A program made the position numbers and the translations under genes. This document shows, in pieces, positions 26,646-58,116 of a stretch of DNA of 64,000 nt. The notes beneath the pieces are model-generated. The model made no database searches, was not told where the DNA came from, and saw only the letters and a list, made by a program, of their open reading frames with translations. Origin of the DNA: Sphagnum compactum (lineage: Eukaryota); contig OZ234493.1 in NCBI GenBank assembly GCA_965153455.1, positions 14,064,213-14,128,212 on the forward strand, read 5' to 3'. Position 1 is the first letter of the stretch. Every line of letters starts with the position of its first letter.

Positions 26646-28593
26646 CTCCTTTTGGTAGGTAGTAATTCCGGAGGAGGGTAGGTAGTTAGGTAGGTAGTAA
26701 AGCAGCGGCGTCGTTGGTTGCTTTGTTTGTTTGTTTTGTTGTGTGTGATGAGTTTTGGCTCTTGTGCTGGAGTCGTCTCTTCTTCTTCTTTCTTTACTGT
26801 TTTTGCTTTCTTGTTGGCGTCATGGCTGTTGCTGCTGCTGGCGGGAGGCGGACGAGCCAGACGACGACGACAAGTAGGAGTGGGACCCGGGACGACGATA
26901 CCAGCGGCTGGATTGGTAGCAGCAGCAGCAGCAGCAAGTGCTTGGAATCGGACGCCTTCATTTGATTGATTGTAAGGAATTTACTTTTTTTCTTTCTCTT
27001 TGGAATCATAATTAGGACAAGAATCGACTTGTTGTGAGCTTTTGTTTTCTGCTCTTTCTCTTCTTCTTCTTTTTCCGTTTCTTTGTTTTGCCTTCTTCTT
27101 CTTATTGTTGTTGTTGTTGCTGCTGCTTTTTTTTCTGTTTTTTTTTCCTTGTTCTTTGTTTTTGCAATGTTTGTTAATCATTTGCAGACAGGCTCTCGTC
27201 GTCGTCGTCGTCGTCGTCGTCATCTGGTTTGCATTGGTTTTCTGGTTTGTCTGTCTTGGAATGAAGGTGCATTTGTTGATTATGAACAATAACCTGCTGT
27301 GCTCTAATCTGCTTTTCTTTTTTGTTTGTGTTTTTTTGTTTGATTCCCGCTGGTCGGATTTTGGAACTGTACCAAGATTCGTCGAGGGCTGAACGTTTGT
27401 TTCTGCTTACTTTCAGTGGACCGCATGCAGCGTTTTCCATTTGGAAGGGCTGCCTCGTTGTTACGATTGCTGGCATTGCTATTGCTGACATTGCTGCTCC
27501 TGCTGCAAGTGTTTTTCAGCCGCTATAAGCCTGATCCCGTTCCTCATGCCTCTTTGGTACCATGGACGTCGATCTTGAGAGTTTTCGTTCTTGTGCACGC
27601 CTGCTTGCATGCATTTTTTCTTTGTGTAATGTCGAAACCTCCTCCTTGTTCGTCCTACAGAATGTCTTGGAGTCGTCTTCATTTGTTGCGAAGAAAATGG
27701 TAATGCACTTACCAGCATTTGCTGCCAGGAGGAGAGAGTCGCTACTGAGGTAGTTGCATTAGCTGTGCGCATGTCACAGGAATATCGCAATGTCCTATCT
27801 GCAGCAGTCCATATAAAGCACGAGTATCGACACGTTCGTTCATCGTGTTGATTGTACTCAGGGAAGCTTCGTCACGGTTCCTCTTGCGGGACTGCAGCCA
27901 GTTCCTCTTGCGACTGCAGCCACACTGCCAACGCGCTGTTGTCACCAAACGGTCACCTTTGGGTTCTGAAGTTCAAACTTTTGCTCAGGAAGAACAACGG
28001 GGTAAACAAGCCAACAAGCCAACTTGATCATCACTATATCCGATCTGATGCTTTACAGGGCGACGATCGAGCACAATGTACCTGATGCATCATCCTACCA
28101 GTGTCGAGGTACGCACTCACCGTGCCTCTTCCCCCATCCCCACCTATACAACCTCGCTTTTGAGTCTTGTACAGAAAACATACCGAGACATCCCTACAGT
28201 GTTATGCATAAACTTGGTCACAGTCCAGCATCTCTGCACTTCCAAGGAGATGTTCTTACTGCATACTGTGCACTATCTGCAATCACTAGGGGAACAATCT
28301 GCAGCAGGGATAATCCCTTCAGTATTGAACACAAATCTGCTGCATTCAAACCTGTATGTCTCATGCCCTTTTACCTCATTTCGCGAAGTTTAGCCCATAC
28401 TGTCATGTAAGATCGAAAACTCTTTTTACCTGAATCTTTGATTCATCTAAGTTTTTATTTCTTATTCATTTGAGTTTTTATTTAGTGTGTACATGATGTT
28501 GCAGATGTGTATGAAGATCAATGTGGGTACCTGTGCAAACTATTTATGCGGTAATATGAACTTCTGAAGCTTGTTTCCACCTGGGAAGGTCCA

Positions 28594-31500: not shown

Positions 31501-33497
31501 TCAGCAGTAGTATTCCACCAGAGATGGGTGAGTGCTCCGTTCTTGTGGAGTTGCTGTTGACAGGCAATCAACTGACAGGTTCAATCCCTCCTGAACTTGC
31601 ACGGCTTACAAACTTGACCACTTTAGATCTTTCATGCAATCTTCTAAATGGATCTATCCCAGCTGAGCTTGGAGAAGTGCACAAGCTCCAAGCGTTGAAT
31701 TTGGCCTACAATAGGCTCACTGGACCAATCCCTCCACAACTAGGTGACATCACCAGCCTGACAAAGCTCAACTTGAATGGAAATATGCTTTCCGGATCAA
31801 TTCCTATAACTCTAGGCAATCTGATGGGTCTGTCTCACTTGGATCTCAGCAACAATCAGCTCAGTGGGGATTTACCATCCTCCTTGGCCAACCTGGACTC
31901 TATTGTGGGGTTGAATCTGGAGAAGAATCAACTAACAGGTGACATTGCTGGGTTGCTGTCTGAAAGTTCAGTCTGGCATCAAGCACAAACTATCAACCTG
32001 AGCCACAATACATTTTCTGGAGTGATTCCAGCCACTATTGGCAATGCCACAGGCCTATCATATTTGGATCTTGGTTGTAATCAGTTTTCTGGGTCTGTTC
32101 CAAATCAGCTTGCAGGCCTGGCACAGCTCAATTACTTGGATCTTTCAAACAACCACCTCAGTGGGATGTTCCCTCCTGAGTTGTGTGATCTTAGATACCT
32201 GACTTTCCTGAATGTGTCATACAATGAACTGGAAGGACAAATCCCTTCAACAGGCATGTGTGCAAAGTTGGGTACCTCTTCATTCATTGCTGATCCTGGA
32301 CTTTGTGGAGACGAACTCAGGATAGAGTGCACAAGGAAAATGGTTCCTACCAGCTTGGTGAGTACAGGGGCAATATCAGGTATTGCAATTGGTTGCACCA
32401 TTGTGTTTCTCAGTATGCTTTTTGTAGTGCTGAGGTGGCGCTTGCTGAGGAGGGAGGCAATGGTGAAAACCAAGGATCTGGAAGAGATGAAGTTCAGCAT
32501 GATGCTTGACACTAGCACATGTTTGACCATAGGAAAATCAAAGGAGCCCTTAAGTATCAATGTAGCCATGTTTGAGCAACCACTGCTGCGGCTTACTCTT
32601 GCTGACATACTGCTTGCTACCAACAACTTCTGCAAGGCTAATATCATAGGAGATGGAGGATTTGGAACAGTTTATAAGGCCATTTTACCGGATGGCAAAA
32701 CTGTGGCCATAAAAAAACTTGGTGCTGCACGAACACAAGGCAACCGAGAGTTCCTTGCAGAAATGGAAACCTTGGGAAAGGTGAAGCACCGAAATTTGGT
32801 GCCATTACTTGGATACTGCTCGTTTGGTGAGGAAAAGCTGCTTGTGTATGAGTACATGGTGAATGGAAGCCTTGACCTGTGGCTTCGGAACCGTGCAGAT
32901 GCAGTTGAGGTTCTGGATTGGAGCAAACGATTCAAGATTGCCATGGGGTCTGCAAGAGGTCTCAACTTCCTTCACCATGGTTTCATACCCCACATCATCC
33001 ACAGGGATGTGAAGACCAGTAACATTTTGCTGGATGCTGATTTTGAACCCCGAGTAGCAGACTTTGGTCTTGCACGACTCATAAGTGCATATGAGACCCA
33101 TGTGAGCACTGATATTGCAGGTACATTTGGGTACATCCCTCCTGAATATGGACAAAGTTGGCGATCCACCACTCGTGGAGATGTGTACAGCTACGGTGTG
33201 ATACTCCTAGAACTGCTCACTGGCAAGGAGCCAACAGGAGTGGACTTCAAGGACATTGAAGGAGGTAATCTGGTTGGATGGGTGCGGCAGATGATCAAGC
33301 AGAGAGCAGCCCAAGAGACACTTGATGCCACTGTCTCCAATGGGCCATGGAAGATGAGCATGCTAAAAGTACTGCATATCGCCAATCTGTGTACAGCTGA
33401 AGACCCACTCATGCGACCAACAATGCTCCAGGTAGTGAAGTACCTCAAGGACGTTGAAGCTGCACCCCAACTGCCAATTTTTGATAGTCGGCAATAA
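28594..33497 (+). CDS. EMS1: LRR receptor-like kinase of the EMS1/EXS (LRR-X) clade; exons 28594-29802, 30241-31098, 31434-33497 (1376 aa from the first ATG)
   Basis: Signal peptide, N-cap PCSWTGVTC, many plant LRRs, island-like segment FQVIAIPTSSFVQHHGTLDLSWN and a TM helix. The juxtamembrane KEPLSINVAMFEQPLLRLTLADIL and the kinase motifs (GDGGFG, HRDVK, DFG, PPEYGQSWRSTTRGDVYSYG) are EMS1-typical. Both introns are GT-AG, phase 0, and keep the frame. Confidence 0.93.
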
Positions 33498-36045: not shown

Positions 36046-37191
36046 CTAATAGAGGTGAGTAGGCCACCGAGGATGTGCCACAGCATGTAAGGGTTGTGCT
36101 CTTGGAGGACTTAGTCCAAATTTGTCAGACATGTCAAGAGTGTGAGGTTCTTGTTGATTGGGAAGAGACCAATCAAAGCTATGGACCAGGTGTGCTAAGG
36201 CAAGTTGAATTACTAATTCTGCTAATGGTTGTCCTGGACAGGCCCGCCTTCCACTACCAAATGGCAAGAGTTCAAAGCTACGTCCATTCCAATCAATCTC
36301 AGGATGTTCCAAGAAACGCTCAGGGTCAAATTCTAAGGGTCTCTCCCAAACGTCAGAGTTGCGGCCCATTGCCCACAGGTTCACAATCACTTGAGTCTTA
36401 GGTGGCAGAGAGTAACCAGCAACTTGACAAAACTCGAGTGACATGTGAGGAAGTAGGAAGACAGCAGCAGGATGGAAACGAAATGTTTCTTTTATTATAG
36501 CTTGGAGATAAGGAAGGTGTCGGAGATCTGATTCCTCAACCACATGATCAGTTCCAACAACCGTATCCAACTCATCCTGAGCACGCCTCATAAGCTTTGG
36601 ATTTCATAGGAGCTCTGCCATTGCCCATTGTAAGGTGACTGACGTGGTGTCTGTACCAGCTGCCAATAGATCCTGTTAAAGCACAATCACATGTATGAAG
36701 ATAGCTATATCATGTTAGATTAAATTATAAGCTAGGATGGCTATAAGAAAAAGATATCAACTACAAAACATACAACAATTTTTCAAAGCTCATTGTTCAC
36801 GATTAACTTTGGGTGGATGAAATGCAGAAATTGTTTCCCATACATAGAGAACAGCCTCAATTGTGTCATCGGAAACTTTCCCAGACCCATCATCCAAACG
36901 CTCAGAAAGTAGCACATCAATGAAGTCTTTAGGTTTATCATTGTATGTTGAATCTTGATGATCAGTTGTTGCATTGTCCCGTCTATGCTCATCAAGTATT
37001 CCTTGAGCAAATTGTTTCATCCTTTTGCGTAAGTCATGCAAGGGAGCTTCAACTCCCTGAAGTTTGCTCACCCACCACAAGGAAGGCACATAGTCACCAA
37101 TAATCACAGTGGCAAATGCCTCAAAGATACCATCGACAATTGTTTGACATGACGAGCTCCCTCCTCACCTTTTTCATCTGCTCCAAAGTAC
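36046..37191 (-). pseudogene. Cytochrome P450 (A-type/CYP71 clan) pseudogene; exons 37191-36844 and 36672-36046, first exon not found
   Basis: Motifs AGTDT, ETFR, PERF and FGSGRRACPG (heme Cys). In-frame TGA at 36606-36604 (ELL*NPK) and a 1-bp frameshift near 37140. No N-terminal exon was recognised upstream. Confidence 0.88.
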
Positions 37192-41178: not shown

Positions 41179-41943
41179 TTGTAATTTCCAGCATTTTTTC
41201 AAAACCACTAAGAAAAACAAGGAAAAATGTGCACCCAAAATCATTAATAGAAATGGCACAGATATGATAATGTCACACTGGTGGGTGGGTTTGACAAACA
41301 AGTTGTCAAAATTGGAGTGATGTTTGGACAGAAGCATCAATTCTAGACATCGGGTCTCTCACCAGATCCTCTCCTCATCCCACAGCATACAGATTCCACT
41401 AGTCCTGCACAATAGTGAGATATTAGTCAGGCTAAATAATTGTCATTGAAATTGAGGAAGAGATGGAAAGAAATGTTATGATCCTGAAATTATTGTGACT
41501 GATCAAAGGAGGTTCTAGTGGAGAAAGAGAAGAGATAAGAGCTCTGTTGGGGCAGCAGATGATTGAAGAAAACAAAGGAAAAAAAGAAGACAGTGCCATG
41601 TGTCTCAAGAGACATGAAGTAAACTCACTTGCCGAAAGCAACTCAACTTGGGCCAGAGTGAATTAACAGCCACCAATGCACCAGTTGGCCGTTCTGTCCA
41701 CTGGATGGGTTGCGTTTTTTCATTCGGCGCCGGATGGGGTTCGTGACAGTCCATTTCTTTTTGCTGCTGACCATTGTACTTTTTTTTTTTGGTTCTTGCT
41801 CGTTTTTCCCTGGACCTGACCTCACACATAGCTACCCTCCTCACTTTTCTACCCTGTTCACTTTTCTACCTAGCTACTGTACTCACCACCTACCCTACTA
41901 ACCTAACTACCCTATTAATTACATACCCTACCCTAAAAACCCT

Positions 41944-42212
41944 ACCCTAAATGCAATACCTGCATTTTGGGCCATTTCGAAAGTACGCATGTGGGGTTCA
42001 AGCTTTCTTTATACAAAGATCCTACCCTAAATGCAATACCTGCATTTTGGGCCATTTCGAAAGTACGCATGTGGGGTTCAAGCTTTCTTTATACAAATAT
42101 CCTACCCTAAATGCAATACCTACATTTTGGGCCATCGAAAAAGTACGCATGTGGGGTTTAATCATTTCTTATACAAAGATCATACCCTAAATGCAATACT
42201 TACATTTTGGGT
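41944..42212. repeat. Tandem ~80-bp array (4 units); related arrays at 43365-43720, 44424-44615 and 49332-49522
   Basis: Unit TACCCTAAATGCAATACCTGCATTTTGGGCCATTTCGAAAGTACGCATGTGGGGTT... Confidence 0.92.
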
Positions 42213-42840
42213 CACACCACTAACCAAGCTACTGTACTAACCACCTTCTCTACTAACCTAGCTACTCTATTAATTACATACCCTACTAACTTAACCATTA
42301 GGTTTAGGGTTGAGACACATAAATTAATTGATAAGTTTTCCATAAATGTATAGTAATTAATTTAAAGTAAGCTAAATTTGGGGGGAAATTTTTAGGGTTT
42401 ACACACATGTGAAGTAATACAATTGCATTTTATACCTTCTTCAAAAAGAGTGGAAAAATTAGGTTGGAAAAATCACACAAAGGTAAAAGACATATCTTCT
42501 TTTTTGGTTTTGTACGAAATTTATTTGATTATTTTTAAAGATTAACGTATTTTCTTTCAGTTAATAAATATTTATAATTTAAAACCTTTGAATTTTGGTT
42601 TCTAATTTTTTTCCTATGTTCTTTTAAATTTGTTTATTTTGCATTATATGATTTGTATAGTTTGTATAGTTTTTTGCGTTTAGGGCATATATCACTAAAT
42701 CTTCTTTTTGTTAGGGTTTGTATAATTAGGGTTGTAATAAGCCTTATGTCAAAATATCATTTGGATTTGTAAGGTTATGTTTTATGATTTAATGTATAGG
42801 AATTTGGTTCATATATTTCAAAACTGATATTTTACTTTAA

Positions 42841-44109
42841 TAAATGTCTCAATTACTAATCAAGATTGTTGCCATTGGCACTAAATTTTTTGTTTTAGAA
42901 TCAATTTTGTATGGAGGAAACCATAGCCCAAATTCTTTGAACAGCATGTATTCAACACACACATGAAGTCTAATATGGCACAAAGCTTATTATTGTTTCC
43001 AAGTAATAAACACAAAAAGTGTGAAATGCAAAAACACAAGGATAATGATAATATTAGTGTTAAATGCAGATATTATAATTAGGCCCCAAAATCCCAGTTG
43101 GTAAAAGTAAATACAAGTGCAAGTAATACCCCAAAATTCCAGTTGGTAAAAGTAAGTACGGGTGTAGGTATTGCAACGAAACCCCAAAATTCCAGTTGGT
43201 AGAGGTAAGTATAAGTTTGGGTATTTCAAGTCGAAATGAAAAAACAAGCCTAAATGCAATACCCACGTTTCAAAAAAACCCATCTAAATGGTTTGGATAC
43301 CTTTAAGTGAAGACCTAGCCCTAAACACAATATGCACATGCAAAATCATTTTGAAATAACCCAACCCTAAATGCAATACCTGCAATTTGGGCCACTCCGA
43401 AAGGACGCATGTAGGGTTTAAGCTTTCTTTATATGAAGATCCTACCCCAAATGCAATACCTGCAATTTGGGCCATTCCGAAAGGACGCATGTAGGGTTTA
43501 AGCTTCTTTATATGAAGATCCTACCCTAAATGCAATACCTGCATTTTGGGCCACACAAAAAATACGCATGTGGGGTTTAAGCATCTTTATACGAAAATCC
43601 TACCCTAAATGCAATACCTGCATTTTGGGCCACTCCGAAAGGACGCATGTAGGGTTTAAGCTTTCTTTATATGAAGATCCTACCCTAAATGCAATACCTG
43701 CATTTTGGGGCACACAAAAATAGTTAGTTAATTTCAAATTAATATGCTAACAAAGGTGTGTATAAAGGTTAGGGTTGTTGATTAGGAATTCCATGATTTT
43801 TACTTCTTTTCATGAATTTGAAAAGAGGTTGTATTGTTTGTGGATCAAATAATACAATGACAATTGTGATCAAGCTTATCTTGGTGTAGGAATTTTTCAT
43901 GAAAAAACTAAACTTACAATCTATAACATGGAATAATTATCTTAAATAGTGATTTCAATAACTTATTAAAACAAAAATATACTTAAGTTAATTAATCAAA
44001 TATCAAATTAATCAATCTGATTTTTAGATCCAACTTTTTATTATCCAAGTAAATAAAATTAAGCCAAATGATTAGTTGATTATTCCAAATAAATAAATGA
44101 TTATCTAAT
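42841..44109. repeat. Long internal direct repeat; second copy at 48799-49913
   Basis: Both copies begin TAAATGT(C/T)TCAATTACTAATCAAGATTGTTGCCATT, end AAATAAATGATTATCTAAT, and are colinear throughout. Confidence 0.9.
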
Positions 44110-46105
44110 GTTTAGGGCATATATCATTAAGACTTTTTTTTGTTAGGGTTTGGTAAAAATAAGTACAAGTGCAAGTATTGAAATTATGCCCCAAAATTCC
44201 AGTTGGTAAAAGTAAGTACGGGTGTAGGTATTGCAACGAAACCCCAAAATTCTAGTTGGTAAAGGTAAGTATAAGTTTGGGTATTTCAAGTTGAAATGAA
44301 AAAACAAACCTAAATGTAATACCCACGTTTCAAAAAAACCCATTTAAATGGTTTGGATACCCTTAAGTGAAGACCTAGCCCTAAACACAATATGCAGACG
44401 CAAAGTCACTTTGAAAAAACCTTACCCTAAATGCAATACCTGCATTTCGGGCCATTTCGAAAGTACGCATGTGGGTTTAAGCATCTTTATACGAAGATCT
44501 TACCCTAAATGCAATACCTGCATTTAGGGTCACTCCGAAAGTATGCATGTGGGGTTTAGGGTTCTTTATATGAAGATCCCACTCTAAATGCAATACCTGC
44601 ATTTGGGGTCATTCCGAATAGCTACCCTGCTCACTTTCCTACCCTCATAAGTATTGCACCAACCTTAGTACCTTATTTATTATCCCCTACTGACACAGCT
44701 ACCCTAATAACTAATTATCCTACTGACCTAGCTATTGTACTAACCACCTACCCTACTAACCTAATTACTCTATTAATTACATACCCTACTAACTTAACCA
44801 TTAGGTTTAGGGTTGAGACACATAAATTAATTAATAAGTTTTTCACAAATGTATAGTAATTAATCTAAAGTAGGCTAAATTTGGGGGGAAAATTTTAGGG
44901 TTTACACATATGTGAAGTAATACAATTGCATTCTATATCTTCTTCAAAAAGAGTGGAAAAAATTAAGTTGGAGAGATCACACAAAGGTAAGAGACATATC
45001 TTCTCTTTTGGTTTTGTATGAAATTTATTTGATTGTTTTTAAAGATTAACGTATTTTGCATTATATAATTTGTATAGTTTGTATAGTTTTTTGGGTTTAG
45101 GACATATATCACTAAGACTTTTTTTTTTAGGGTTTGTATAATTAGGGTTGTAATAAGGCTTATGGCAAAATATCATTTGGATTTTTAAGGTTATGCTTTA
45201 TTATTTAGTGTATAAAAATTTGGTTCATATATTTTAGAACTTAAGGTTTATACTCTAAATTTTGCTCATTGTATTGGATTTTGATCTTTTCACTTGTTTA
45301 AATCTATACCATAATTTGAATTTCCTTTGTTTCCATATGTTCCATAATTCCTAGAGTTTAATATTTTCTAACCCATTTTTGTACGAGTTATGATTTTTTA
45401 GGGTTGCGTTTTCAATTGGGACTTTAAACTTTGGTGGACCGTTGTCATCTTTTATTCTTAAAGGTATGCATTTGTCTCTTGTTACTTCTTTTGTTTTTTT
45501 GTTTATATTTTCATAATCCAAACTCTTTTCATTTCCTAGTTGTTGGATATAGAAAGGGCATCAAGTTTCATTAAGTATACAAGCATAGATAAAGGTTTTA
45601 TACTTTTACATGGATATTTCATATTCAATATTTCTTTGTAGTTTATTTTTTCATACCCATATGCGAATAATGCATTGACTACCCACAACCAGTGTGGGTT
45701 TTATGGCTTAAGGTAGGTATTGCATTTTGCACCTCTCAAACAGTGTGCATTAACTATCATTATGTGGGTATTGCTACATGGGGTTTTCAAACATTATGGG
45801 TTTAAGGTACAATACGGGTATTGCATATGAGAAAATTTTCGATGAGGGGAGGTTTAATAGCTCAATGTGGGTATTGCCAAAGTTTGTTTTAGTATATGGG
45901 TTCATAATGCAAGTATTGTACGTTATGTACATTGGAATAGTATTTTTTTATATCATGATATGGGTGTTGTAATGGGAATTCCAAGTCACAACATTGATTT
46001 TAAAGGAGCCATGTATGTATTGCATTTTGGGTTTTTGTTCAATGATGAATGCTTAGAGTATTATAAATTCTCTTGATGCAGGAATTTGTCCTACTTCTTT
46101 CAATC

Positions 46106-48801
46106 ATGCCAAGGATTCCAAAGTCCCATTCCATTCATGTCCAAAACCCCACCAAGTCCCCTTTCTCAAACAAAGATTTGGTGTGGACATCTGGGATACG
46201 CCATGGAGGGCAAAATAAAGTGACCATTCAATTTGCTTATGTTCCATATGCTCGCATCTCCGAATTCTTGGAAGGTGAACGAGGGGATACGAGCACCCCT
46301 GTGGAATGGAGTGTTTACAAAAACTTTCCAAGCCAAACGGATGTCAAGCGACCAACTATCAAAAACCACCTCGGGCATACATGGTAAACATTTATGGCAT
46401 TAACCTTTTTAATTTCTTTACTTCATATACCAAAGATGTAATAATTTACGTTTTGAAAGTTTTTTGGTTTAGGTATCAATGCGTATATGGACCAGAGGAC
46501 TATTGAGAAAATTCAACCCACATTCGATCTATTAAACGAGGATGCCTAGCGTCATTCTCAATCAAACGTCTATACACACGACCTGATGTGGCTGAGATCA
46601 CAATTTATCATAAGGCCCATACACGAATTGATGGGTCATTCGCACATGGTGAGCATGACCCAGAGTCCATTTCTCGTATGTCTCGTTATGCTCCACGCAT
46701 GTCACAAGCATTGAAAGACCACATATGGGCCCAACTAAGCTTAGGTTATACGACCAATCAAATATATGACAAGCATAAAGCAATTTGGTGGGAACGTGTG
46801 AATGCGGGTCAAAGCATGACACGAGATGATTTTATTCGGCTTCAAGACATTGCATATTTAGATCGGAAACATAAGAAAGGGAGTTGGCGTTTACACACTA
46901 ACCCTGCAATTTCAATTCGGTCTTGGGCTCTCCAACATCCAGAAGATGTGTTCTTTTTCCAAGATGTTGGTGAAATGAACGGAACTCAAGTCCCATTCAC
47001 CATAGGTATTCAAACACCAACTCAATGTGAGTCCATGCTATCATATGGTCACAATGGTGCCATTTCTATGGATGCAACATTTGGCACAAATGACATGAAA
47101 TTCCATCTATTCACCTTGATGGGATTTGATGATCATCGCACGGGTGTCCCTTTAGCCTGGATCATTACAAGTAGGCAAACAGTGCAAGATTTGATCGAAT
47201 GGTTGAAACCATTAAAAGAGAAGATGTTATCACACATGCCGCATTGGAAACCATCATGTTTTCTTGTTGATGATGCACCTCAAGAATTGAAGGCATTACG
47301 GTTAGTTCTATACCTAGTATCGACTTTGTGTTTATTTCCTTAAATGTTTTTTAATATCTTTCATAAAATTCTTGATTACTTCAAATGCATTTTATGTTGT
47401 ACTAACCCCATCCACTCATGGAGATTTTATTGCATATGTGTCCTTATTAGGGTCGTATGGGGTATGGACAAGGTTCCCATCTACCTTTGTTGTTGGCATG
47501 TTCTCAAAGCATGGCGCCTACGTGGTATTGAAAAAATCAAAGATGTGGAAGTGCGGGGTGGAATCCTCCAAGATCTTCATGATGTGATGTACATGTCCAT
47601 CAATCATGGAGAAACAATTGATGACTTCAAAGAGCGTGGGAGGGTTGCTGTGAGAGAAAGCCGTCATAAACATAGGCCTGGTGATGCGTGGACAAACTAT
47701 TTCTGGACTTATTACCATCAATTTGGTAAGTGATAATATTTATCATGGTTCAACATTCAAAATTATTTTGTATAATGTTATTCATCCTTATGTATTGTGT
47801 TTATGTTTGTAGAATTATGGATGGTGGGTGTTCGAAGAGTGCCCCATTCCAACCAAGACACCCAAGCGAGCATTGAATCATATCATGGTGCATTGAAACG
47901 TTGGCTTGCTCTTGACACAAAAGGCCTTAGAGGGCGTAGGATTGACTGGTTGGTGTGGCGATTAACAACAACCGTTGCACACCACTACATGCACACATTG
48001 GAAATGAAAAAGAGGGGTTTCATAAAAAACAAGGTTATGGAGGCCATTATTACACGAAGTGTGGAAAAGGCAACCCTTATTCCACTCAGCCATGTGTACC
48101 AACCAACCCTTGAGAGTGATGGAGCTTGGGCCGTACGGAGCCAACACCTTCCCAATGTTATTTACACGGTGAAATTCTCATTCACCGAAATGTTTTGTTG
48201 CACATGCGAATGGGCATTGCGAGGGAACATGTGTAAACACCAAATTAAGGTCATTCTCACATGCACAGACATTTCTCAAAAGGATATCATTCATTACTGT
48301 GGAACATGGTATGGATCACATCGTGGAGGGTTGGGTCACATGTTTGCAGACCCGCAACATATTCCAGATGATATGGAGTCCAGTGATGATGACGAAGATG
48401 ATCATCTTGAAGGTGATGATGGGATCATGAAATTTGATGGGCTCATGAACATGGAGCAAAATGATCTCCCTATGGGTGCCATTGTAGGGTTTAATGAGAC
48501 AATAAATTCATCAACCCCAATGGAAAGGGCTCTTACACAATTGGTCACTACAATGCAAGAGATCACAAATGAATGTAAAGAAGGCGATGTGACACTTTGT
48601 GAACATGCCACCTCACATATGAGAGTATTGGCATGTAATATTCGTAACATACGCCTCACAAAAGCAAATGCAATTTCACACCCAGGATTGGTGTTACATC
48701 GTGTAGAAGATGGATTGGGAAATAGTGTCAAACGGTTCAAAGATTGGCATGAAACAATGCTCAATCACACAAATGTACGTACTAAACGATGTCATGAATA
48801 A
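46106..48801 (+). pseudogene. MULE transposase (N-terminal Zn-binding domain, DDE core, SWIM finger); exons 46106-46383, 46473-47300, 47451-47725, 47813-48801 (790 codons) with one premature TGA
   Basis: Motifs MDATFGTN, FLVDDAPQE, LCCWH, SIESYH and SWIM CTCEWALRGNMCKH. Three GT-AG introns keep the frame. TGA at 46504-46506 (GPEDY*ENS). Confidence 0.88.
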
Positions 48802-51749
48802 ATGTTTCAATTACTAATCAAGATTGTTGCCATTAGCACTAAAACTTTTCTTTTAGAATCAATTTTGTATGGAGGAAATCATACCCCAAATTATTTGAAC
48901 ATCATGTATTCAACACACACATGAAGTCTAATATGGCACAAAGGTTATTATTGTTTCCAAGTAATAAGCACAAAAAGTGTGAAATGCAAAAACACAAGGA
49001 TAATGATAATATTAGTGTTAGATGCAGGTATTGTAACTAGGCCCCAAAATCCCAGTTGGTAAAAGTAAGTACAATTGCAAGTATTGCAATCATGCCCCAA
49101 AATTCCAATTTGTAAAGGTAAGTACGGATGTAGGTATTGCAATGAAACCCCAACATTCCACTTAGTAGAGGTAAGTATAAGTTCAGGTATTGCAAGTTTA
49201 AATGAAAAACAAGCCTAAATGCAATACCCACACGTTTAAAAAAAAAACCCATTTAAATGGTTTGGATACCCTTAAGTGAAGACCTAGCCTTAAACACAAT
49301 ATGCAGACGCAAAGTCACTTTGAAAAAACCTTACCCTAAATGCAATACCTGCATTTTGGGCCATTTCGAAAGTACCCATGTGGGTTTAAGCATCTTTATA
49401 TGAAGATCCTACCCTAAATGCAATACCTGCACTTTGGGTCACACAAAAAATATGCATGTGGGGTTTAAGCCTTCTTTAAATGAAGATCCTACCCTAAATG
49501 CAATACCTGCATTTTGGGTCATTCTAAAATAATTAGTTAATTTCAAAATCATATGCTAACAAAGGTGTGTATGGAGGTTGGGGTTGTTGATTAGGAATCC
49601 ATGATTCTTATTTTTTTTCATGAATTTTAAAAGAGGTTCTATTGTTTGTGGAACAAATAGTACAATGACAATTGTGATCAAGCTTATTTTAGTGTAAGAA
49701 ATTTTCATGAAAGAGTTGAACTTGCAATCTATAATATGGAATAATTATCTTAAATAGTGATTCCAATAACTTATTAAAACAAAAATATACTAAAGTTAGT
49801 TAATCAAATATCAAATTAATTAATCTGATTAAATCCAACATTTTATTTTCAAGTAAATAAATTTAAGCCAAATGATTAATTAATTATATTAAATAAATAA
49901 ATGATTATCTAATTCTTCATAATTAATCATTTAAATTATCTAAAATAATGGTCTATTAATTATTTAATTATATGACAAATTTTATTGATAATTCATTAAT
50001 TATCATAAATATTTTATATTAAATTGGCCGAAATGTTTTAGGGTTTAGACATATGTGAAACAATACAATTTCATTATATATCTTCCTAAAAGAGATTGGG
50101 AAAGTTAGGTTGGAGTTATCACACAAAGGTAAAAAACAAACCTTATGTGAAAACCCAACCCTAAATGCAATACAAAGTTTGTCAAGATCAAAAAATAAAA
50201 AGTTCAAGCTTAAATATTTTTCAACGATGTTCATATTTTTTTTCCCCTTTTAAAGTTGTATATTCATACTAAAAACATAAATATAAAGTCTTTAATTTAA
50301 CAAGATTTTAAATTATGTTTAAAAAAAATTCAAAGCACGTAATTTTCTACTTTCTTTTTTTCTGTTTCACATAATAATAAAAATGATCTCTCCCATATAT
50401 TAATCCTATGTTTAATTGAAATTTTAATTTATACTTTTCTGATATATAGTAAATAATTTCTTGGTTAAAATATTCATATAGTGGGTCAAAAATATTTTAT
50501 ATTTTATAGATATATAACACAAGTCCTTATGTAAACTTTATTTTTTATGATGTATAATATTGGTTTAAATATTGGTCCAAATATATTGTTATTTATAACA
50601 CTTAATATATAAATAATGATATTATGGAATTATACTGTTGATCCAAATCAATACATATAATATTTTAGGGTTTAGGGTTGGGTTTTCATAGGTTAGGGTT
50701 GGGTAAACCCTAAAACCCTAATCCCTACAAATATAGCTATTTGTTAAGTAACCTAATTAACTACCTGATAGGCTACCTACTTAATATAGGCCTATTATGT
50801 AATTTATTCATTAATGTAAGCTTTCTAAATTAATATCTTAAATGGTCTATGTAGGTATTGAAGGTGATTGAATGTATTAAGTAAACCCACTAGTCATATA
50901 GGTAATATACTAGCCTAGGCGACGTAAGCCTAATAAGTATTTATGATAGTTTAATGTCTAATCCTTCTTGTGTTATAACATTTTAAATTTGAACTAAAAG
51001 AATTTATCAAAAAGAAAGCACATTTTTCCATATAATTGTTATAAGTATATACTATTGGAGTATGATTCAAATTTAGAGTTTGGGAAACCCTAAATTAATT
51101 AACAATTTTTTTACAAATTAATAGTAAATAAAATAAATCTACGGTGCATTATAGGGGGAATTTTATATGTAAAAAAATGCAATACATATTTTTAAAGAAA
51201 TTGAAATAGATCAGCTTGGAGATTAACAAATGGTAAAAGACATACCTTCTTTTGTGTTTTGTCACAAATTTTATTTAATTATTAAACATTATGGCTAAAT
51301 TTACAAATGGTGAAAGTAAGTATGTGTGTGGATATTGCAAAATTATATGAAACCTTAACCCTAAATGCAATAGCCATATTCATGTTTATTTGAAAATAAC
51401 CCATAGGTGAATAAGGTAAAACCTACAATGAAAGGGCAACCTTAAATGTAATACCCACATGTAAGGTCACTTTGAAATACCCAATATGTAGTTTGGGTGC
51501 GCCTTTGAATGAAGACCAAGGCCTAGATAAAATACCTACATGCAAGATCATATTGAAATAATACATAGGTGATTGAAGGAAACCATATGTGAAGACCCTA
51601 AACCCTCAATGCAATACTCGCATGTAATGTCATTTCAAAAGTGGCCTCGGTACCAAAATTATGTCTTTTTATATACCCAAAATTAATTATTATTCTAAAT
51701 TAATTTTATTACAAAATGTAAGTTTCATAATGAATGTAAAAACCAGCAC

Positions 51750-51992
51750 CTATTATGGGACCTACATGCGAGTATTGCAAGAGATGGAAAAAAACCAGGG
51801 GTTATAAGGGAACAATATGCGGGTATTGCAAGGAATGTTTAAAAAACCCAGTGGCTATTATGGGACCTATATGCGGGTATTGCAAGGAATGTTTATAAAA
51901 CCTAGTGGCTATTATGGGACCTATATGCGGGTATTGCAACGAATGCAAAATGCATATGGCTATTTTGGGCCTATATGTGGGTATTGCATTTT
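51750..51992. repeat. Tandem ~55-bp repeats carrying GGTATTGCA
   Basis: CTATTATGGGACCTATATGCGGGTATTGCAA repeated about 5 times. Confidence 0.85.
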
Positions 51993-52392
51993 TGAAAATG
52001 GAGTTCATAATAGAGAATGATGTAGGTATTATATGTTTAAAATGTGTGGATTGTTTTAAAAGTCTTCAGGTGATGTGAGTCGTATTATATTAGATATAAG
52101 TATTGCATAATGTTCATTTTGATCTTTGGTTTGATTCTTACATCTCCAGTACTAAAAAAATTATGACAAAGAAAACATATATGATTAACCATATACCCAT
52201 CAACAAGTGTGAATAGAAGGTACTATTATATTGATAAAAGATGTACAAAAATGGGTGCATGAAAAATTACTAAAGAACCTATTGAAAAAAAAGTGTTGGT
52301 TCTCTATAACATATCAAAGGATTGAAGTTCAAAATTGGGTAGTCCAAAAATGAAAGGGTTACAAAACCTAATTAATTATATAAAGTGAAACC

Positions 52393-54208
52393 CTAACACA
52401 TATCACTATCTACAATCCCGTGTTTAGCGCAGTATGCAGCTGCTGCATTTGCAGCCTTTGCTGTATGACGAACAATGTACAAATGCCGGCGTTGCATCTC
52501 TACTTGAATTGCATTTGCAACAAACTGGGCCTTTGTCTGGTCCTGTACCCTGTAAACACCCAAAAATCACAAAATTAACCCTAAACACACCTTGGATGAA
52601 ATACAATAAAAAACAATAAACATTATTTATTATTGTTTCTTACCTTCCATGAATCATTCTAGATTCATGAAAATCCAAAACATCTCCCAGCTGTTTTTTC
52701 CGAGATGTTTTACTGGACTCTCGCTCCCAGTTCTTCACATCCCATGTCGTCTTTAATTTTCGTGCATATGCACAACGGGTGGATCGGATCGTCCCATGTA
52801 AGTCTTCATCCTTCTCCATTCGTACAATTGCATCTGGCGCCACACTGCCCACGCCCCAAGCATTGAGGCCCAAAACCTTCAACAATTGTTCTTGGGTTAA
52901 TCTGACCAAAGCAGGTTTTGGCAATGGTGGATACTGTTTTGCAACAGCCACCAGGTGATTCCACTCGCGCTCTGCTTTGGCACGAGCACGACTAGCAACT
53001 TTCTGGTCATTCCTCCTTTGAACAGCCATCGCATTTCCCAAAATGCGAGCGTTCATCTTGGCATGGTCCTGATGTTGAAGACCTCCTGTAGCAGTTGAAG
53101 GCTTCCCAGGTTTGGACTTTTCTGCCACCAAACCATGCGCCTCCTTCAGATGCTTGGTCAATAGCCATTTTGCACAATATGCCACAGTGCAATTGCCGAC
53201 TCTGCACTTCCATTTGGACCCAACCTTTGTCCATTCCTTATCCTTCCGAGCCAAATTAGCTGGACAAACAAGTGCAAGTGGTTGAGAAGCTTGCTCAGTT
53301 TCCAGTTCCAAACCTAAACCCAAAAAATGAAAGTTCAAAAAACAGAATGCAGGTATTGCAAAACATTAAATCACAAAATCACATACTACTCCTATAAACA
53401 TGAACTGTTTTAAGGTATTGCAGTAAAAAAAATTTGACAAAAAAATTCCCACACCTTCCAACAAATGATGGAAGGTGCGGAGATAATTAAACTTAAAGAA
53501 AACTTGTACAATGTTATTAATCTGTAATTAATCTAATGTCCTATCTTCTAATGTCCACAAATTCTAAAACAATCTATACCAATGCTATCCTTGTGTTTCA
53601 ATTTTGATAGAGCACAATTTTTCTCACCAATTTCCTGATCTGATGCAACAACACTTCCATCAGCAATTACTACATCTGATGCAGCAACACTTCGGTCATC
53701 AATTGCTTCATTTAATGTAGCGACATTTTGTTGGGCAGTTGCTGCATTTGATGCAGCAACATTTTGCTGGGCAGTTGCTGCATTTGATGCAGCAACATTT
53801 TGCTCGGCACCTCCCGCATTTGATGTAGCAACATTTTGCTCGGCACCTCCCGCATTTGATGCAGCAACATTTTGCTCGGCACCTCCCGCATTTGATGCAG
53901 CAACATTTTGCTCGGCACCTCCCACATTTGATGCAGCAACATTTTGCTGCATAACTTCCACATTTGATGCAGCAACATTGTGCTGAAGAATTGCCGCATC
54001 TAATGCAGCAACAAGTGGCTCAGCACTTGCCTCATCTCCTCCAGCAACATATGAAAGAAGAATCGGCTCATCTGAAACAGCAACATTTGGCAAAAGACTT
54101 GCCTCATTTGCTGCAGCATAATCTTGCCTCATTTGCTGCAGCATAATCTTGCCTCTTGCCTTCCAACTCACCACCACCGCTCTTCCTTAATCTTCTTCCC
54201 CTACCCAT
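52393..54208 (-). CDS. MULE accessory gene: unknown protein with 12-aa repeats and a C2H2 zinc finger; exons 54208-53628, 53313-52644, 52549-52393 (about 460 aa if a 25-bp duplication is removed)
   Basis: GT-AG introns (phase 1 and phase 2) join three open frames. Contains (NVAASNAGGAEQ)n and CRVGNCTVAYCAKWLLTKHLKEAH; the last exon reads VQDQTKAQFV...GIVDSDMC*. A 25-bp tandem duplication near the start shifts the first ATG out of frame. Confidence 0.72.
53745..53985 (-). repeat. 36-bp coding tandem repeat (12-aa unit)
   Basis: GCATTTGATGCAGCAACATTTTGCTCGGCACCTCCC repeated about 7 times with variation. Confidence 0.9.
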
Positions 54209-54289
54209 TACAACCTCCAACCCTAAACCAAAAACCACCAGTTTGTTAATTCTAATGAACTAAAGCATACGCAACAATAAAGAAAAAAA

Positions 54290-55800
54290 AAAACAATTGC
54301 CACCATAGAGAAAGGTGACGACATTGCTGCCGTCACCTTCTTCGCAGCAAAACCATAAAAGAAAGGCGGAGGACGCCACTTCCTTATAGCAAAGCCATCG
54401 AAGAAGGTGCTGGCAGCTATCGTCATCTTCTTCTTCAATATAAATTCTCCTACGTTGAAAAACTACAAGAAGAAGGCGCCTTCTTTTGCTGCGCTGCAGC
54501 GCAGCAAAACCAAAAGAGGAAGGTGACGGTAGATGTCGTTGCCTTCGTCTGTAGCACAGCAGCAAGAAAAAAAAAAAGGCAACGGCAGCGTGGCTGCCGT
54601 CGCCTTCTTCACTGCGCTGCAATGCTGCAGTGCAGCGCAGCAACAAAAAAAAACCAATGAGCCTTCTTTGTGGAGCTGCGTTGCAGCGCAGCTCCGCAGT
54701 ACGGAGAAGGAGGCGACGGCAGCTGCCGTCGCTTTCTTCGTGGAGCTGCGCTACAACGCGGCTCTGCAGCAGACAGAAGAAGGCGACGGTAGCTGCCGTC
54801 GCCTTCTTCTTCCTTTTTTTTTTACAACACGAAGAAGAAGAAGGCGCGGCAGCTGCCGTCGCCTTCTTCTTCCTTTCTTTTTTACAACACGAAGAAGAAG
54901 AAGGCGCGGCAGCTGCCGTCGCCTTCTTCTTTTTCTTTTTTTTTCAACACGAAGAAGAAGAAGGCGACGGCAGCTGACGTCGCCTTCTTCGTGGAGCTAC
55001 GCTGCGTTGCAGCGCAGCTCCACAGCAGGAAGAAGAAGGCGACGGCAGCTGCCGTCGCCTTCTTCTTCCTTTTTTTTTTGCAACACGAAGAAGAAGAAGG
55101 CGACGGCAGCTGCCATCGCCTTCTTCTTTTTTTTTTTTTTTACAACACGAAGAAGAAGAAGGCAACGGGGCAGCTGCCGTCGCCTTCTTCGTCGAGCTAC
55201 GCTGCGCTGCAGCGCAGCTCCACAGCAGGAAGAAGAAGGCGACGGCAACTGCCGTCGCCTTCTTCTTCCTTTTTTTTTGGCAACACGAAGAAGAAGAAGC
55301 TAGCTGCCGTCGCCTTCTTTGTGGAGCTACGCTGCGCTGCAGCGGAGCTCCACAGCAGGAAGAAGAAGGCGACGGCAGCTGCCGTCGCCTTCTTCGTGGA
55401 GCTACGCTGCGCTGCAGCGCAGCTCCACAGCAGGAAGAAGAAGGCGACGGCAGCTACCATCGCCTTCTTCTTCCTTTTTTATTTTGCAACACGAAGAAGA
55501 AGAAGAAGAAGGCGACGGCAGCTGCCGTCGCCTTCTTCTTCTTCTTTTTTTTGCAACACGAAGACGAAGAAGGCGACGGCAGTTGCAGCGCAGCTCCACA
55601 GCAGGAAGAAGAAGGCGACAGCTGCTGTCGCCTTCTTCTTCCTTTTTTATTTTGCAACACGAAGAAGAAGAAGGCGACGGCAGCTGCCGTCGCCTTCTTC
55701 TTCCTCTTTTTCTTTTTTCTTGCAACACAAAGAAGAAGAAGGCGACAGCAGCAACGCTGCCATCGCCCTCTTCTTCTTTGTTTTTCTTGCAACACAAAGA
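54290..55800. repeat. Array of about 20 GC-rich palindromes
   Basis: The perfect palindrome GAAGAAGGCGACGGCAGCTGCCGTCGCCTTCTTC and variants alternate with T-tract/CAACAC spacers or with GTGGAGCTACGCTGCGCTGCAGCGCAGCTCCAC. Confidence 0.93.
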
Positions 55801-56595
55801 GCTGCATTGTGAAGCTGCGCTGCGTATCTTGTGCATCGCAGCTCTACAAACAAACAAACAAACAAACAAAAGGAAGATGCTTACCTGGGTCTCGCGTGGG
55901 TCCCGCTCCGGCTCTAGGCTCCCGTGCTCCAAGCTCTCGCTCCCGCTCCAGGCTCCCCTGCTCCAAGCTCGCTCCCGCTCAACGTCTCTGGAGCTCTGGC
56001 GATGGAGTGAGGGGGAGGGGTTGGTAGGTGGTAGGTAAGAGGGGGGGAGGTAGGTGGTAGGCAGGAGGGGGGAAGGCAGGAGGGGGGAGGTAGATGGTAG
56101 GTAGGAGGGGGGAGGTATGTCGTAGGTAGGAGGGAAAATTTTGGGGCAGGTAGGAGGGAAAATTTTGGGGTAGAGAAGAGGTGAAAAAAAAAAATATTTG
56201 GGCAGTCCGGATGTGGTTTTGGTTCATCCCCAAAACGGGTTGAACGGGCTCATCCTCAACTGGTGCATTGGTGGCTGCTAATTCACTCAAGCCCTCAACT
56301 TGGAAACACTCAAATGACCATAGGTTAACATTTCATGAGGGCTATGGACAGTGTGCAGATTCCAAGTGGGTGTCAGTTGGAGTTTCTTATTAGGGCACCA
56401 TAACTTCAGAGCTTTCTTCATATTTACTCCAAATTTGTTTCCCAACTTCTGGAATTTTGCATCAATGTTTGGTGGTGATGTTTTCTTCTAAGTATCTTTT
56501 CCTCTACCCGAAATTCAATGGTTGTATTGTAACATGACCATGTGGAAGATTCTTGGAGTTTTTTTGTGGTATAACAAAATGTGAGGATAGAGATT

Positions 56596-56991
56596 ATGGA
56601 GATGCATCCAGGTGGGTGCGTAGACAACAATTTTCAGATGGCCAGAAAAGTGAGGGGTTGCTGCTGGTGTATTGGATTCGACAAAGTGCAGGAGTTCTTA
56701 GACATGACAGTGTGGGTTATGTTGCTGGCAATGGCCTATTCTGGTCATGAATTTGGTGTTTTTGGACAACCGACCTTACCAAGTTCTTATGGAGGGATAA
56801 ACGGGAATACACTGATGAATATGACAGCAACTTCATGGCCTCCAGCACAAGGACCTTTTGCCACCTTCACCTTTTTTGCCCCAGCCAATTCTGCTCTGGA
56901 GGTGCAGATATATATCCTTTCTAGACTTCAACATGAAAGGTGAATCGATGAAGGTTCAGGAGATAGATGAATAGCTTAAATGCAACACCAC

Positions 56992-57041
<50 letters not shown>

Positions 57042-58116
57042 GAGTGGCAGTTCAAGCATATTAGATAGAAGAAAGCAGCATTGCTTTGAATTTTAATAGG
57101 GTTCAATGTGATTCAATTCTACTTGCTTTGCTTTGCGGTTGAAAGATTTTGAAAGCTTGAAAACCAGATCTTTTTAAATTTGAAAAAAGAGCTAGAGATC
57201 CAAACTTGCATATTATATGAGTTTTCTAAGAATTTTTACAGGGTTTGTTTGTGCATGATTCTCATGGCTACCAGGATTGTTGTTTTTGTTGTGTTGGTGG
57301 TATGGTGAATCAAGGACAGAAATTCCCGTGCCTGTTTTCAGGTACAGGAAGCGAGAGTGGAACACTAGCTGTAAGTGTGTTGCAATATCACATAATTCCA
57401 AACAGGGTGTATACCTATGATCAATTGAAACAACTGGCAGATACAGCTGATTTTATGGCGACAACGGCATTTGCTGGGCAAACGCTTAATGTGTCAACGG
57501 GAACCTTCAAACTCAATGGCTATGCAAAAATTGTCAAACCGGATATATATCAGTCATATGCACGCCAAAAGATCCATGGCATTGACTCCATGCTCATTCC
57601 TCCTGGCATGCAGGTGATCAAACTAGAATTGCCTCAAAGTTTTGCATTGTAAAGAATTCTGAGCATTCTCAGAATTGGCACTATAAGTATTGAGAAGCCT
57701 GAAACTCATACCTTTAATTCATGCTCATGTTGTACTTGTTTGCGGGAATGAGTTTTTTCCACACATGTAAGTAGCCCTCTAAGATGCCAATCAGTTGACT
57801 TAGCTGGGACAACAAAAAGCATTTTGCACGTTCATCAAGTGGATTAGAAAACCAAACAAATTAGGGTTCAATGTTGGCAGCAATTTCTATAATTCTCTCG
57901 CCCATGGAGAGGCCATGAAGATGGAAACTGTGTAAATAATCTACTAATGTCGCATATAAATTTTATAATCTACATAATCTACTAGAGCTTCACAAATTAT
58001 GTAGTGTATATTTATTTGAATTTGTTCAATTTTTGCAGCTTGGGTGTGGACCATATGCTCCAATTGTAAAGCCTGTCACCGAAACCCAAAGTGCTTCTGA
58101 TCCAGCTTGTAAATGA
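56596..58116 (+). CDS. Fasciclin (FAS1)-domain protein (FLA-like); exons about 56596 (or 56704)-56901, 57320 (or 57242)-57613, 58039-58116
   Basis: FAS1 H1 TFFAPANSAL, YH motif VLQYHIIP and H2 IHGIDSMLIP. Phase-0 GT-AG junctions and a hydrophobic signal-like MTVWVMLLAMAYSG. The start codon and exon-2 acceptor are uncertain. Confidence 0.72.
56996..57038. repeat. (CT)n microsatellite in the fasciclin gene intron
   Basis: About 21 CT units. Confidence 0.95.

Follow-up and report, generated by a model that had tools for sequence, protein, structure and literature searches.

A Mutator-like element (MULE) of 14.6 kb, at 41651..56293 of the window (the whole 64,000-nucleotide stretch of Sphagnum compactum DNA that was analysed), carries an accessory gene beside its transposase gene and many copies of one short motif. 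The question raised by this locus is what the accessory protein and the motif do for the element, and whether they could form a self-targeting anti-silencing system, as the original prediction proposed.

Structure of the element and of its two genes

The element is bounded by 37-bp terminal inverted repeats (TIRs), at 41651..41687 on the + strand and 56257..56293 on the - strand, which match at 34/37 positions, and by a perfect 9-bp target-site duplication (TSD), CTCAACTTG, at 41642..41650 and 56294..56302, just as had been predicted. A degenerate 34-nt TIR pattern gave 156 exact matches genome-wide versus 0 for the reversed control. Since every one of 24 TIR-paired copies has its own TSD (18 perfect 9-bp, 3 perfect 10-bp and 3 with 8/9), the family has been recently mobile; the TIRs and 8-11-bp TSD that characterize the MULE superfamily were present in 24/24 copies. 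The family is a many-copy one in peat moss, and the window copy is broken in both genes. A segment at 42839..43561 (+ strand) is repeated at ~48797-49529, the two copies flanking the transposase gene, and the junction of one transposase-less derivative lies inside this repeat pair. The Pfam MULE search of the genome yielded no clean accessory-free control family, and no literature on Sphagnum MULE transposases or on this element was found in a search outside which most subscription papers and Repbase lay.

The transposase gene (46106..48801, + strand, 789 codons) is spliced, as predicted, with exons at 46106-46383, 46473-47300, 47451-47725 and 47813-48801; its introns were deduced from GT-AG borders and an open frame in 5/11 copies, that is, from sequence rather than RNA. 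The product matched Pfam MULE (E=6e-9, 36.6 bits, above the cut-off of 27.6) and, weakly, SWIM (Pfam, E=0.037). Following MULE signatures, we assign D293, D359, the CxxH at 382-385 and E482 to the catalytic signature and take the SWIM finger to begin at C590. These signature residues are kept in 9/9 equal-length copies, and the protein has the features of a MULE-superfamily DDE transposase, namely the MULE domain, CxxH and SWIM finger. In the window copy, a premature stop interrupts codon 104 (46504-46506).

The convergent, spliced C2H2 gene foreseen on the - strand was found to have three coding exons and a single finger. Coding exon 1 (53628..54208, - strand) encodes a basic N-terminus and a 12-residue tandem peptide (36-bp repeat), and in the window copy it is frameshifted by a 25-bp duplication at 54098-54155. 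Intron 1 (53314..53627, - strand) contains two core motifs, and a similar stretch is retained in clade II. Exon 2 (52644..53313, - strand) encodes the finger, a basic G(R/K)PS stretch, a 48-residue helix and a helical domain without known family, and coding exon 3 (52393..52549, - strand) a helical, Ala/His/Arg-rich part. The intron between exons 3 and 2 (52550-52643) is skipped in RNA contigs, exon 3 is present in the spliced S. balticum protein P0285, and the splice dinucleotides of exon 2 are retained in 30/30 copies and the exon-3 acceptor in 29/30. In relatives, the accessory RNA is minus-strand and exon-limited, with both introns skipped.

The finger lies below the Pfam cut-off, but a profile comparison matched it to a TFIIIA finger (E=1.1e-4). 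The pattern C-x4-C-x12-H-x4-H occurs in the majority rows of clades I, III, IV and V, clade II having usually one residue less between the histidines, and the strands and helix of the classical beta-beta-alpha fold are predicted at pLDDT 54-67. Structure models of the protein were poor (mean pLDDT 54 and 42): with the exon-2 model, Foldseek gave no match at E<=0.001 and VIA-align a best Z of 7.0 that covered the long helix only and was uninformative, while the single-sequence model of P0285 was too poor for a fold search. The accessory protein was not recognised as MURB or VANC by any profile searched, in line with the original prediction. Among the homologs listed, there was no named protein family or named host family, and those with names were Sphagnum balticum proteins, which agrees with the bryophyte host supposed earlier; no longer accessory homolog emerged from 1060 candidates. 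Atlas searches gave top scores of 0.88 and 0.89, both to unnamed clusters, and these serve as leads only. We also considered whether the accessory protein might derive from transposase exon 1, and rejected this, as the profile comparison, which covered that exon, revealed no similarity.

With at least 150 genome matches and a dN/dS of 0.30 (60 subfamily A-B pairs), the accessory gene is, as judged from its sequence, a family-wide component under purifying selection, and the concern that it might be captured and confined to a single copy can be dropped. It is present in five clades, the convergent gene pair being retained in clades I, II and III, and it does not resemble a Pack-MULE gene, which is a captured piece of host sequence carried by one or a few non-autonomous copies and free of coding selection. 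A shared deletion has removed the greater part of the accessory gene from four of the 24 copies, and another copy is without the gene; since all five have TSDs, it is dispensable in cis. Accessory-only derivatives made up 11/24 copies, these 11 having been selected partly by their accessory match.

A repeated word and its variation between clades

Of the core motif, TGCAATAC, the element holds 37 copies and the remaining 49 kb of the window one, and the 14-mer TGCAATACCYNCAT, with at most one mismatch, was counted 35 times versus 0.31 expected from shuffles. Nineteen of the core sites lie 5' of the transposase gene (41941..46024), either singly or in tandem units of 79/80 bp and 53 bp, in a region that also includes internal duplications. 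Another 16 lie in the stretch that separates the 3' ends of the two genes (48802..52392), in 53-, 80-, 81- and 54-bp units, and 2 in accessory intron 1. No core motif was present in the 3779 bp of coding exons, nor in the 2.1 kb from the accessory ATG to the right TIR. The earlier view that the motif is amplified, with many tandem units, was confirmed; that it packs the non-coding DNA holds insofar as all 37 sites are non-coding, but not for the right 2.1 kb. A dense short motif in non-coding tandem repeats is also the arrangement of VANDAL/VANC elements. A GC-rich, CpG-rich palindromic array at 54300..55800, devoid of the motif (CpG observed/expected 1.1 versus 0.27-0.58 elsewhere), lies probably within a 5' UTR intron of the accessory gene; in subfamily B it is replaced by a different repeat.

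Across twelve elements, 273 copies of the core motif were counted in 151.5 kb versus one in 86.5 kb of their flanks, and paired motifs numbered 1056 genome-wide versus 7 for the reversed control. Among 25 elements, 287-1214 bp separate the left end from the first core motif, and 1404-4298 bp separate the last one from the right end. When 8 loci with unfamiliar repeat units were inspected, 6/8 had either a homolog of the accessory gene or an end resembling the TIRs of the lineage. Motif and TIR have a 6-base word in common.

The 9-bp core is identical in five accessory-gene clades, in which 460 core sites occupy 102 flank contexts, only 2 of them common to more than one clade. Because the same core recurs across these contexts in five clades, the motif is under selection, and because so few contexts are shared, it is the word and not the repeat unit that is conserved. 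Fast co-variation between protein and motif across subfamilies, for which the original prediction suggested a check, is so far not supported: apart from the constant core, a single shift was observed, the third base after the core being a purine in 15/17 contexts of clade I, 15/19 of clade III and 7/8 of clade IV, and a pyrimidine in 26/33 of clade II and 25/27 of clade V. Clades II and V, which alone have a Tyr in the finger helix, form one branch (support 96/99), on which both changes, in motif and in helix, fall; with only one branch involved, they may just as well follow the transposase or drift. T-type sites are also frequent near the accessory gene in clade III (33/59). An Asn at helix position +3 was rejected as the cause of the T-type motif, since clade V has Leu there, yet 37/43 of its sites are T-type. 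Many clade I sites abut a word that we liken to the telobox, a 5' flank that is absent in clade II.

Possible roles of the accessory protein

The explanation that we favour, and to which we give a little less than an even chance, is that the accessory protein is an independently evolved self-binding regulator that would keep the transposase gene active. In addition to its transposase, this Sphagnum Mutator-like lineage would then encode a sequence-specific regulator whose single C2H2 finger, basic stretch and long helix would bind the word TGCAATACC(Y)NCAT, which the element has multiplied to either side of the transposase gene and within introns. Once the arrays are occupied, the element, and mainly its transposase gene, would stay transcribable against host silencing, and the protein would act in trans on every copy. 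We infer both that the accessory protein is the motif binder and that its effect is activation or anti-silencing. In favour of this reading we count the gene pair kept convergent in clades I, II and III, the selection on the accessory gene, its RNA in relatives, the selection on the motif, the non-coding and asymmetric placement of its sites, the third-base shift in just those clades that have Tyr in the finger helix, and the parallels with VANC. The constant core, the lack of a hypomethylation footprint, the poor structure models and the TSD-flanked copies without all or most of the accessory gene speak against it. One zinc finger reads only 3-4 bp, so that the protein would owe its specificity mostly to uncharacterised parts.

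The supposed effect on methylation was checked indirectly, through mutation, by comparing singleton C-to-T changes near motifs and elsewhere in 18 copies, a test that is blind to transient demethylation. Reduced decay near motifs was not found in these copies, neither at CG (20/1196 near motifs versus 12/550 in far non-coding DNA and 11/1074 and 15/1004 in two coding regions; p>0.1) nor at CHG (27/1217 versus 14/1069, 16/506 and 39/1463 in the comparison regions; p>0.1), and the predicted hypomethylation footprint was thus missing.

This missing footprint would suit a protein that binds the motif or the transposase and serves transposition, as a cofactor comparable to MURB or TnpA that assists end pairing, integration or the choice of target. 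Maize MuDR also has a convergent second gene, mudrB, on which integration apparently depends (available part of PMC6446971), and TnpA binds DNA and is required for transposition (available part of bioRxiv 10.64898/2026.08.24.746577); however, the sites in the 25 elements are not at both ends, and many are intronic or between genes, and we regard this role as rather unlikely. It is unlikely, too, that a transcription or chromatin factor of the host recognises the motif, which the element would have amplified to borrow host activity, while the accessory protein works otherwise. A fixed host specificity would account for the invariant core, and the telobox-like neighbour in clade I would fit, but clade II is without it, the clusters look confined to the lineage (6/8 unfamiliar loci; one site in the 86.5 kb of flanks) and a third-base shift specific to certain clades calls for a binder that is not the same in all of them. 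Binding of the internal motif by the transposase itself, which would activate its own family, appears quite improbable. The transposase of AtMu1 is by itself sufficient to demethylate and activate cognate copies, but it binds its TIRs (available part of bioRxiv 10.64898/2026.08.24.746577), whereas the motif sites here are internal and unlike the TIR beyond the 6-base word. The transposase exons are better conserved between clades than the accessory ones (mostly 50-72% versus 34-47%), which fits a stable core, but the accessory finger would be left without a target.

The anatomy would also suit a self-repressor that binds the arrays and limits transposition; the arrays decay as if methylated and accessory-only derivatives are common (11/24 examined). 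Still, we hold this to be very improbable, since those 11 copies were partly picked by accessory match and repeated independent amplification of sites would be easier to explain if sites raise copy number. That the accessory gene is a Pack-MULE passenger among neutral tandem repeats is hardly credible: the window copy is indeed broken in both genes, but the matches, the dN/dS and the five clades speak against it, as do the lack of a named host family among the listed homologs and the motif retained across 102 contexts. Even with a host factor or the transposase as binder, a motif re-amplified in ~100 contexts demands explanation.

If the self-binding regulator is real, any active copy could switch on all clades through the one site that they share, and transposase-less copies that retain the accessory gene would supply the protein in trans. 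It would also offer a small sequence-specific tool to open silenced chromatin. The proposal lends itself to a direct test, since a candidate protein, a candidate site defined to 14 bp and two natural variants to compare (clades I/III versus II/V) are at hand.

Comparison with known transposon systems

In maize MuDR, mudrB is convergent and the TIRs are long. The Sphagnum element shares with MuDR (mudrA/mudrB) a transposase plus a second ORF and the 9-bp TSD (available part of PMC6446971), and also the convergent layout; it differs in its 37-bp TIRs, in its internal motif arrays and in an accessory protein with a C2H2 finger and without a match to any named family. Homology to MURB was judged through the accessory homologs listed, among which there was no named hit. 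Yarrowia Mutyl (mutA/mutB) likewise has short TIRs (22 bp), a 9-10-bp TSD and a second ORF credited with a DNA-binding role, C2H2 being tabulated for the group, but it is fungal, the available parts of PMC6446971 and PMC9865632 do not mention motif arrays in it, and we liken the protein to MutB by description only; the orientation of mutB is given in review as same-sense in text and antisense in table. TnpA of Spm/CACTA is also a transposon-encoded sequence-specific regulator apart from the transposase; however, it belongs to another superfamily, has a transposase-derived HTH domain and acts at both termini (available part of bioRxiv 10.64898/2026.08.24.746577), whereas the Sphagnum protein is a zinc finger without similarity to its own transposase exon 1, with sites that are internal and absent at the right end.

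As far as the available part of PMC5735166 goes, VANDAL21/VANC21 and VANC6 resemble our element in joining an accessory gene to a MULE, in the short motif, which VANDAL21 has multiplied as tandem repeats within introns and ahead of the transposase, and in VANC proteins that combine conserved domains with variable tandem peptides. Variable tandem peptides were found here as well, the 12-residue repeats differing in sequence and number between subfamilies A and B. VANDAL21 differs in that the Sphagnum element has clear short TIRs. VANC is described as dicot-specific and MAIN-related (available part of PMC13547354); its domains DUF1985/DUF287 gave no Pfam hit for the three accessory exons (E<=1) or for 7 accessory homologs including spliced P0285 (E<=5), and the Sphagnum protein has one C2H2 finger instead. 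The targets of VANC21 and VANC6 differ from each other and are family-specific (available part of PMC5735166), whereas the Sphagnum core is common to all clades, binding and demethylation being putative here. Somewhat tentatively, we propose that peat-moss MULEs possess a single-finger anti-silencing protein independent of VANC and TnpA, in which the target word stayed fixed while the protein diverged to 35-47% identity and other repeats took the place of those around the word. Such a shared-site strategy would be the opposite of the family-private one of VANC. As the dedicated transposon-encoded anti-silencing proteins described so far in the available parts of these sources (VANC, TnpA) come from flowering plants, a third, unrelated moss protein with the same logic would represent convergent evolution. 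By analogy, the layout of the element and its variable peptide repeats are VANC-like.

A multicopy family with a damaged representative

The original prediction had described a Mutator-like (MULE) element at 41651-56293 with 37-bp TIRs, a 9-bp TSD, a spliced transposase gene on the + strand and a convergent spliced C2H2 gene on the - strand, and all of these were recovered. The two ends agree in 34 of 37 positions, and the flanking 9-bp duplication is perfect. The transposase gene comprises 789 codons over four exons; its product exceeds the Pfam cut-off for MULE, matches SWIM weakly, and has relatives in Ceratodon (40% over 570 residues) and Riccia. The accessory gene has three coding exons (53628-54208, 52644-53313 and 52393-52549), separated by introns at 53314-53627 and 52550-52643. 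Profile comparison with 19 divergent members gave a TFIIIA finger as a match (E=1.1e-4) and, weakly, Gli and Sp1 fingers. The window copy is damaged in both genes: codon 104 of the transposase is a stop where 9/9 other copies have a sense codon, and accessory exon 1 carries a 25-bp duplication that closes the first-ATG frame after 34 codons, with an in-frame ATG available further on. Upstream of the accessory ATG lies a palindromic CpG-rich array (54300-55800), which could fold into hairpins or serve for methylation-sensitive control; subfamily B, one of two subfamilies (A and B), has an unrelated GC-rich repeat in its place. Some 280 bp beyond the right end of the element begin exons (56575-57652) that resemble those of a fasciclin-domain protein. 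Elsewhere in the window, sequence features point to a host EMS1-like LRR receptor-like kinase gene (28555-33497), a degenerate transposase of hAT-like type that includes a BED-like finger (6408-7797) and, by its signature, a C-terminal cytochrome P450 exon (36046-36603, - strand).

The element is real, multicopy and recently mobile. Accessory exon 2 has at least 150 genome matches (150 scored, of 803 candidates) and transposase exon 2 at least 148 (144 scored, of 655 candidates). When 137 of the 148 transposase rows were used, excluding second fragments and short rows, 49 had an accessory match in convergent orientation no more than 15 kb away, versus about 0.4 expected by chance. These figures contradict the idea of a captured gene unique to the window copy. 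By transposase identity, pairing occurred in 33 of 49 at ≥90% and in 0 of 41 at <70%. The 24 copies examined, picked by match or TIR pairing and not at random, all carry their own TSD (18 perfect 9-bp, three perfect 10-bp, three with one mismatch) and 17-38 motifs each. Both genes are present in 8, the accessory gene alone in 11, the transposase without accessory exon 2 in 2, and neither in 3. Since seven transposase-less copies have one breakpoint in common, that derivative must have amplified as a family. The transposase frame is open in 5/11 copies, and both frames in 2/9 two-gene copies checked. Two transposase-carrying and two transposase-less copies (among loci L117, L120 and L130-L133) share a deletion endpoint within accessory exon 3, pointing to recombination between element types. 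Family copies also cluster in number on a small contig (C20 of G000, 3.3 Mb); the sex chromosome of Sphagnum is the small chromosome 20.

Selection, exchange and transcription of the accessory gene

The accessory gene is under selection and expressed. Exons 2-3 are free of internal stops in 17/30 copies, and comparison of subfamilies A and B gives a dN/dS of 0.30 (60 pairs) or 0.23 (majority sequences). Exon 1 encodes a basic N-terminus and, after it, 12-residue repeats that vary between subfamilies in sequence and number. Synonymous divergence between A and B is 0.045 in the transposase (46106-48801) versus 0.277 in the accessory gene (52393-53313), and in two copies (L009, L010) a B-type exon 1 precedes A-type exons 2-3; elements seem to exchange the accessory module.

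RNA was compared over the accessory region, with the transposase outside the stretch. About 12% of X10, a stranded poly(A) run, was sampled; 62 reads fell on this region, every one with its first mate on +, a sign of minus-strand RNA in most stranded libraries. Coverage drops within the introns and loose read ends occur at both junctions. These reads are <95% alike to the window copy, and therefore come from relatives. X2 and X3, apparently a single data set, have contigs in which intron 2 (94 bp, CT..AC) is missing and intron 1 approximately so; X1 also contains an unspliced contig. The spliced form, exon 3 included, is independently annotated in S. balticum (P0285).

Among the accessory homologs listed, those with a name are all Sphagnum balticum proteins, which makes a peat moss the most probable host. 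Against 1.84 billion representatives, the profile gave 378 matches at E≤0.001, and the 150 listed are all unnamed. The most distant homolog inspected (P0262, a 1.8-kb record) retains the finger, GRP and WG motifs and may place the family outside Sphagnum. The structure model, of low confidence, forms the finger from strands and a helix and has a 48-residue helix; fold searches with it were uninformative. We take the G(R/K)P stretch following the finger to resemble an AT-hook core.

One core word in five accessory lineages

The word TGCAATAC occurs 37 times inside the element and once in the other 49 kb of the window; for the 14-mer with ≤1 mismatch, 35 were found versus 0.31 expected. Of the core sites, 19 are on the 5' side of the transposase, 16 between the two genes and 2 in accessory intron 1; the 3779 bp of coding exons have none, nor does the part right of the accessory ATG. 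Hence the predicted packing of non-coding DNA with one motif holds in that all 37 sites are non-coding, but it does not extend right of that ATG. At 41952-53360, the commonest site of clade I (clades I-V being accessory-gene lineages) consists of inverted 5-base half-sites with a 5-base spacer, a symmetry that would suit a dimer; sites of clades II and V lack it.

A search with divergent homologs showed that divergent transposases have accessory genes of their own, convergent in 13/14 divergent loci examined, most of them picked for paired matches. Accessory identity to the window copy (majority sequences) is 40% in clade II and 47% in clade III. In three clade II elements, TIR variants are accompanied by 9-bp TSDs that contain 0-1 mismatch; clades IV and V were seen as accessory gene and nearby DNA, without a linked transposase. 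The core motif is identical in all five clades. Repeat units are 79/80 and 51-54 bp in clade I, 205-207, 42 and 32 bp in II, and 51/102 and 43 bp in III, and non-coding DNA aligns between clades in few short stretches, most around motifs. Twelve elements hold 273 core sites in 151.5 kb versus 1 in 86.5 kb of flanks, and 460 core sites represent 102 flank contexts, two of them shared between clades. Our strongest result is that the core word is kept and its surroundings are replaced, which implies, judging from sequence, a binding partner. Genome-wide, paired motifs number 1056 versus 7 for the reversed pattern; of eight loci with unfamiliar units, three contain an accessory homolog, three show a TIR-like end and two show neither.

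Candidate partners and known systems

The original prediction had proposed to check whether gene and arrays co-occur and co-vary. The same core does lie near accessory genes of all five clades, but co-variation is slight, amounting to one shift at the third base past the core: a purine in 15/17 contexts of clade I, 15/19 of III and 7/8 of IV, and a pyrimidine in 26/33 of II and 25/27 of V. A finger-helix residue is Tyr in II and V, Trp in I and III, and Ser in IV; clade III has numerous T-type sites close to the accessory gene. Since II and V form a single branch (support 96/99; 25 rows, those <90 residues excluded), this is one event, and co-variation fits the accessory protein and the transposase alike as partner. 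Recognition of the motif by the transposase is rather improbable in our estimate.

The reading we tentatively favour, at somewhat under an even chance, is an accessory protein that would bind to the arrays and, by occupying their motifs, keep the element active. That it serves instead as a transposition cofactor is unlikely; sites are distant from the right end in 25/25 elements measured, which speaks against end pairing and favours regulation of the transposase gene. A host factor recognising the motif is as doubtful, if not slightly more so. Among 18 copies of subfamily B, cytosines in CG and CHG decay to T about three to four times as often as those in CHH, and no less often within 40 bp of a motif than elsewhere, suggesting that the arrays spent most of their time after insertion in a methylated state. 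Constant protection is thereby made less likely, but not episodic anti-silencing. A self-repressor is a long shot, and a neutral passenger gene, given least credence, hardly credible. Beside these readings, the putative binding by the accessory protein offers a candidate protein-site pair open to direct testing.

Second ORFs in MULEs are already known, as mudrB, mutB and vanB/vanC (PMC6446971; PMC9865632). VANC21 and VANC6 are described as binding short motifs amplified in non-coding tandem repeats and as combining variable tandem peptides with DUF1985 and DUF287 (PMC5735166); RdDM and VANC reportedly have non-coding targets in common (PMC10398659), and VANC is termed dicot-specific and MAIN-related (PMC13547354). 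TnpA and the AtMu1 transposase are presented as further self-activators in a preprint whose main text leaves moss unmentioned (bioRxiv 10.64898/2026.08.24.746577). Literature on this Sphagnum element was not found in a search with most subscription journals outside it. The moss element looks like VANDAL in layout; however, as the original prediction noted, its accessory protein is not recognisable as VANC, lacking the VANC domain and any Pfam family above the cut-off, and its core is without turnover. Therefore, the moss system is not a VANDAL member.
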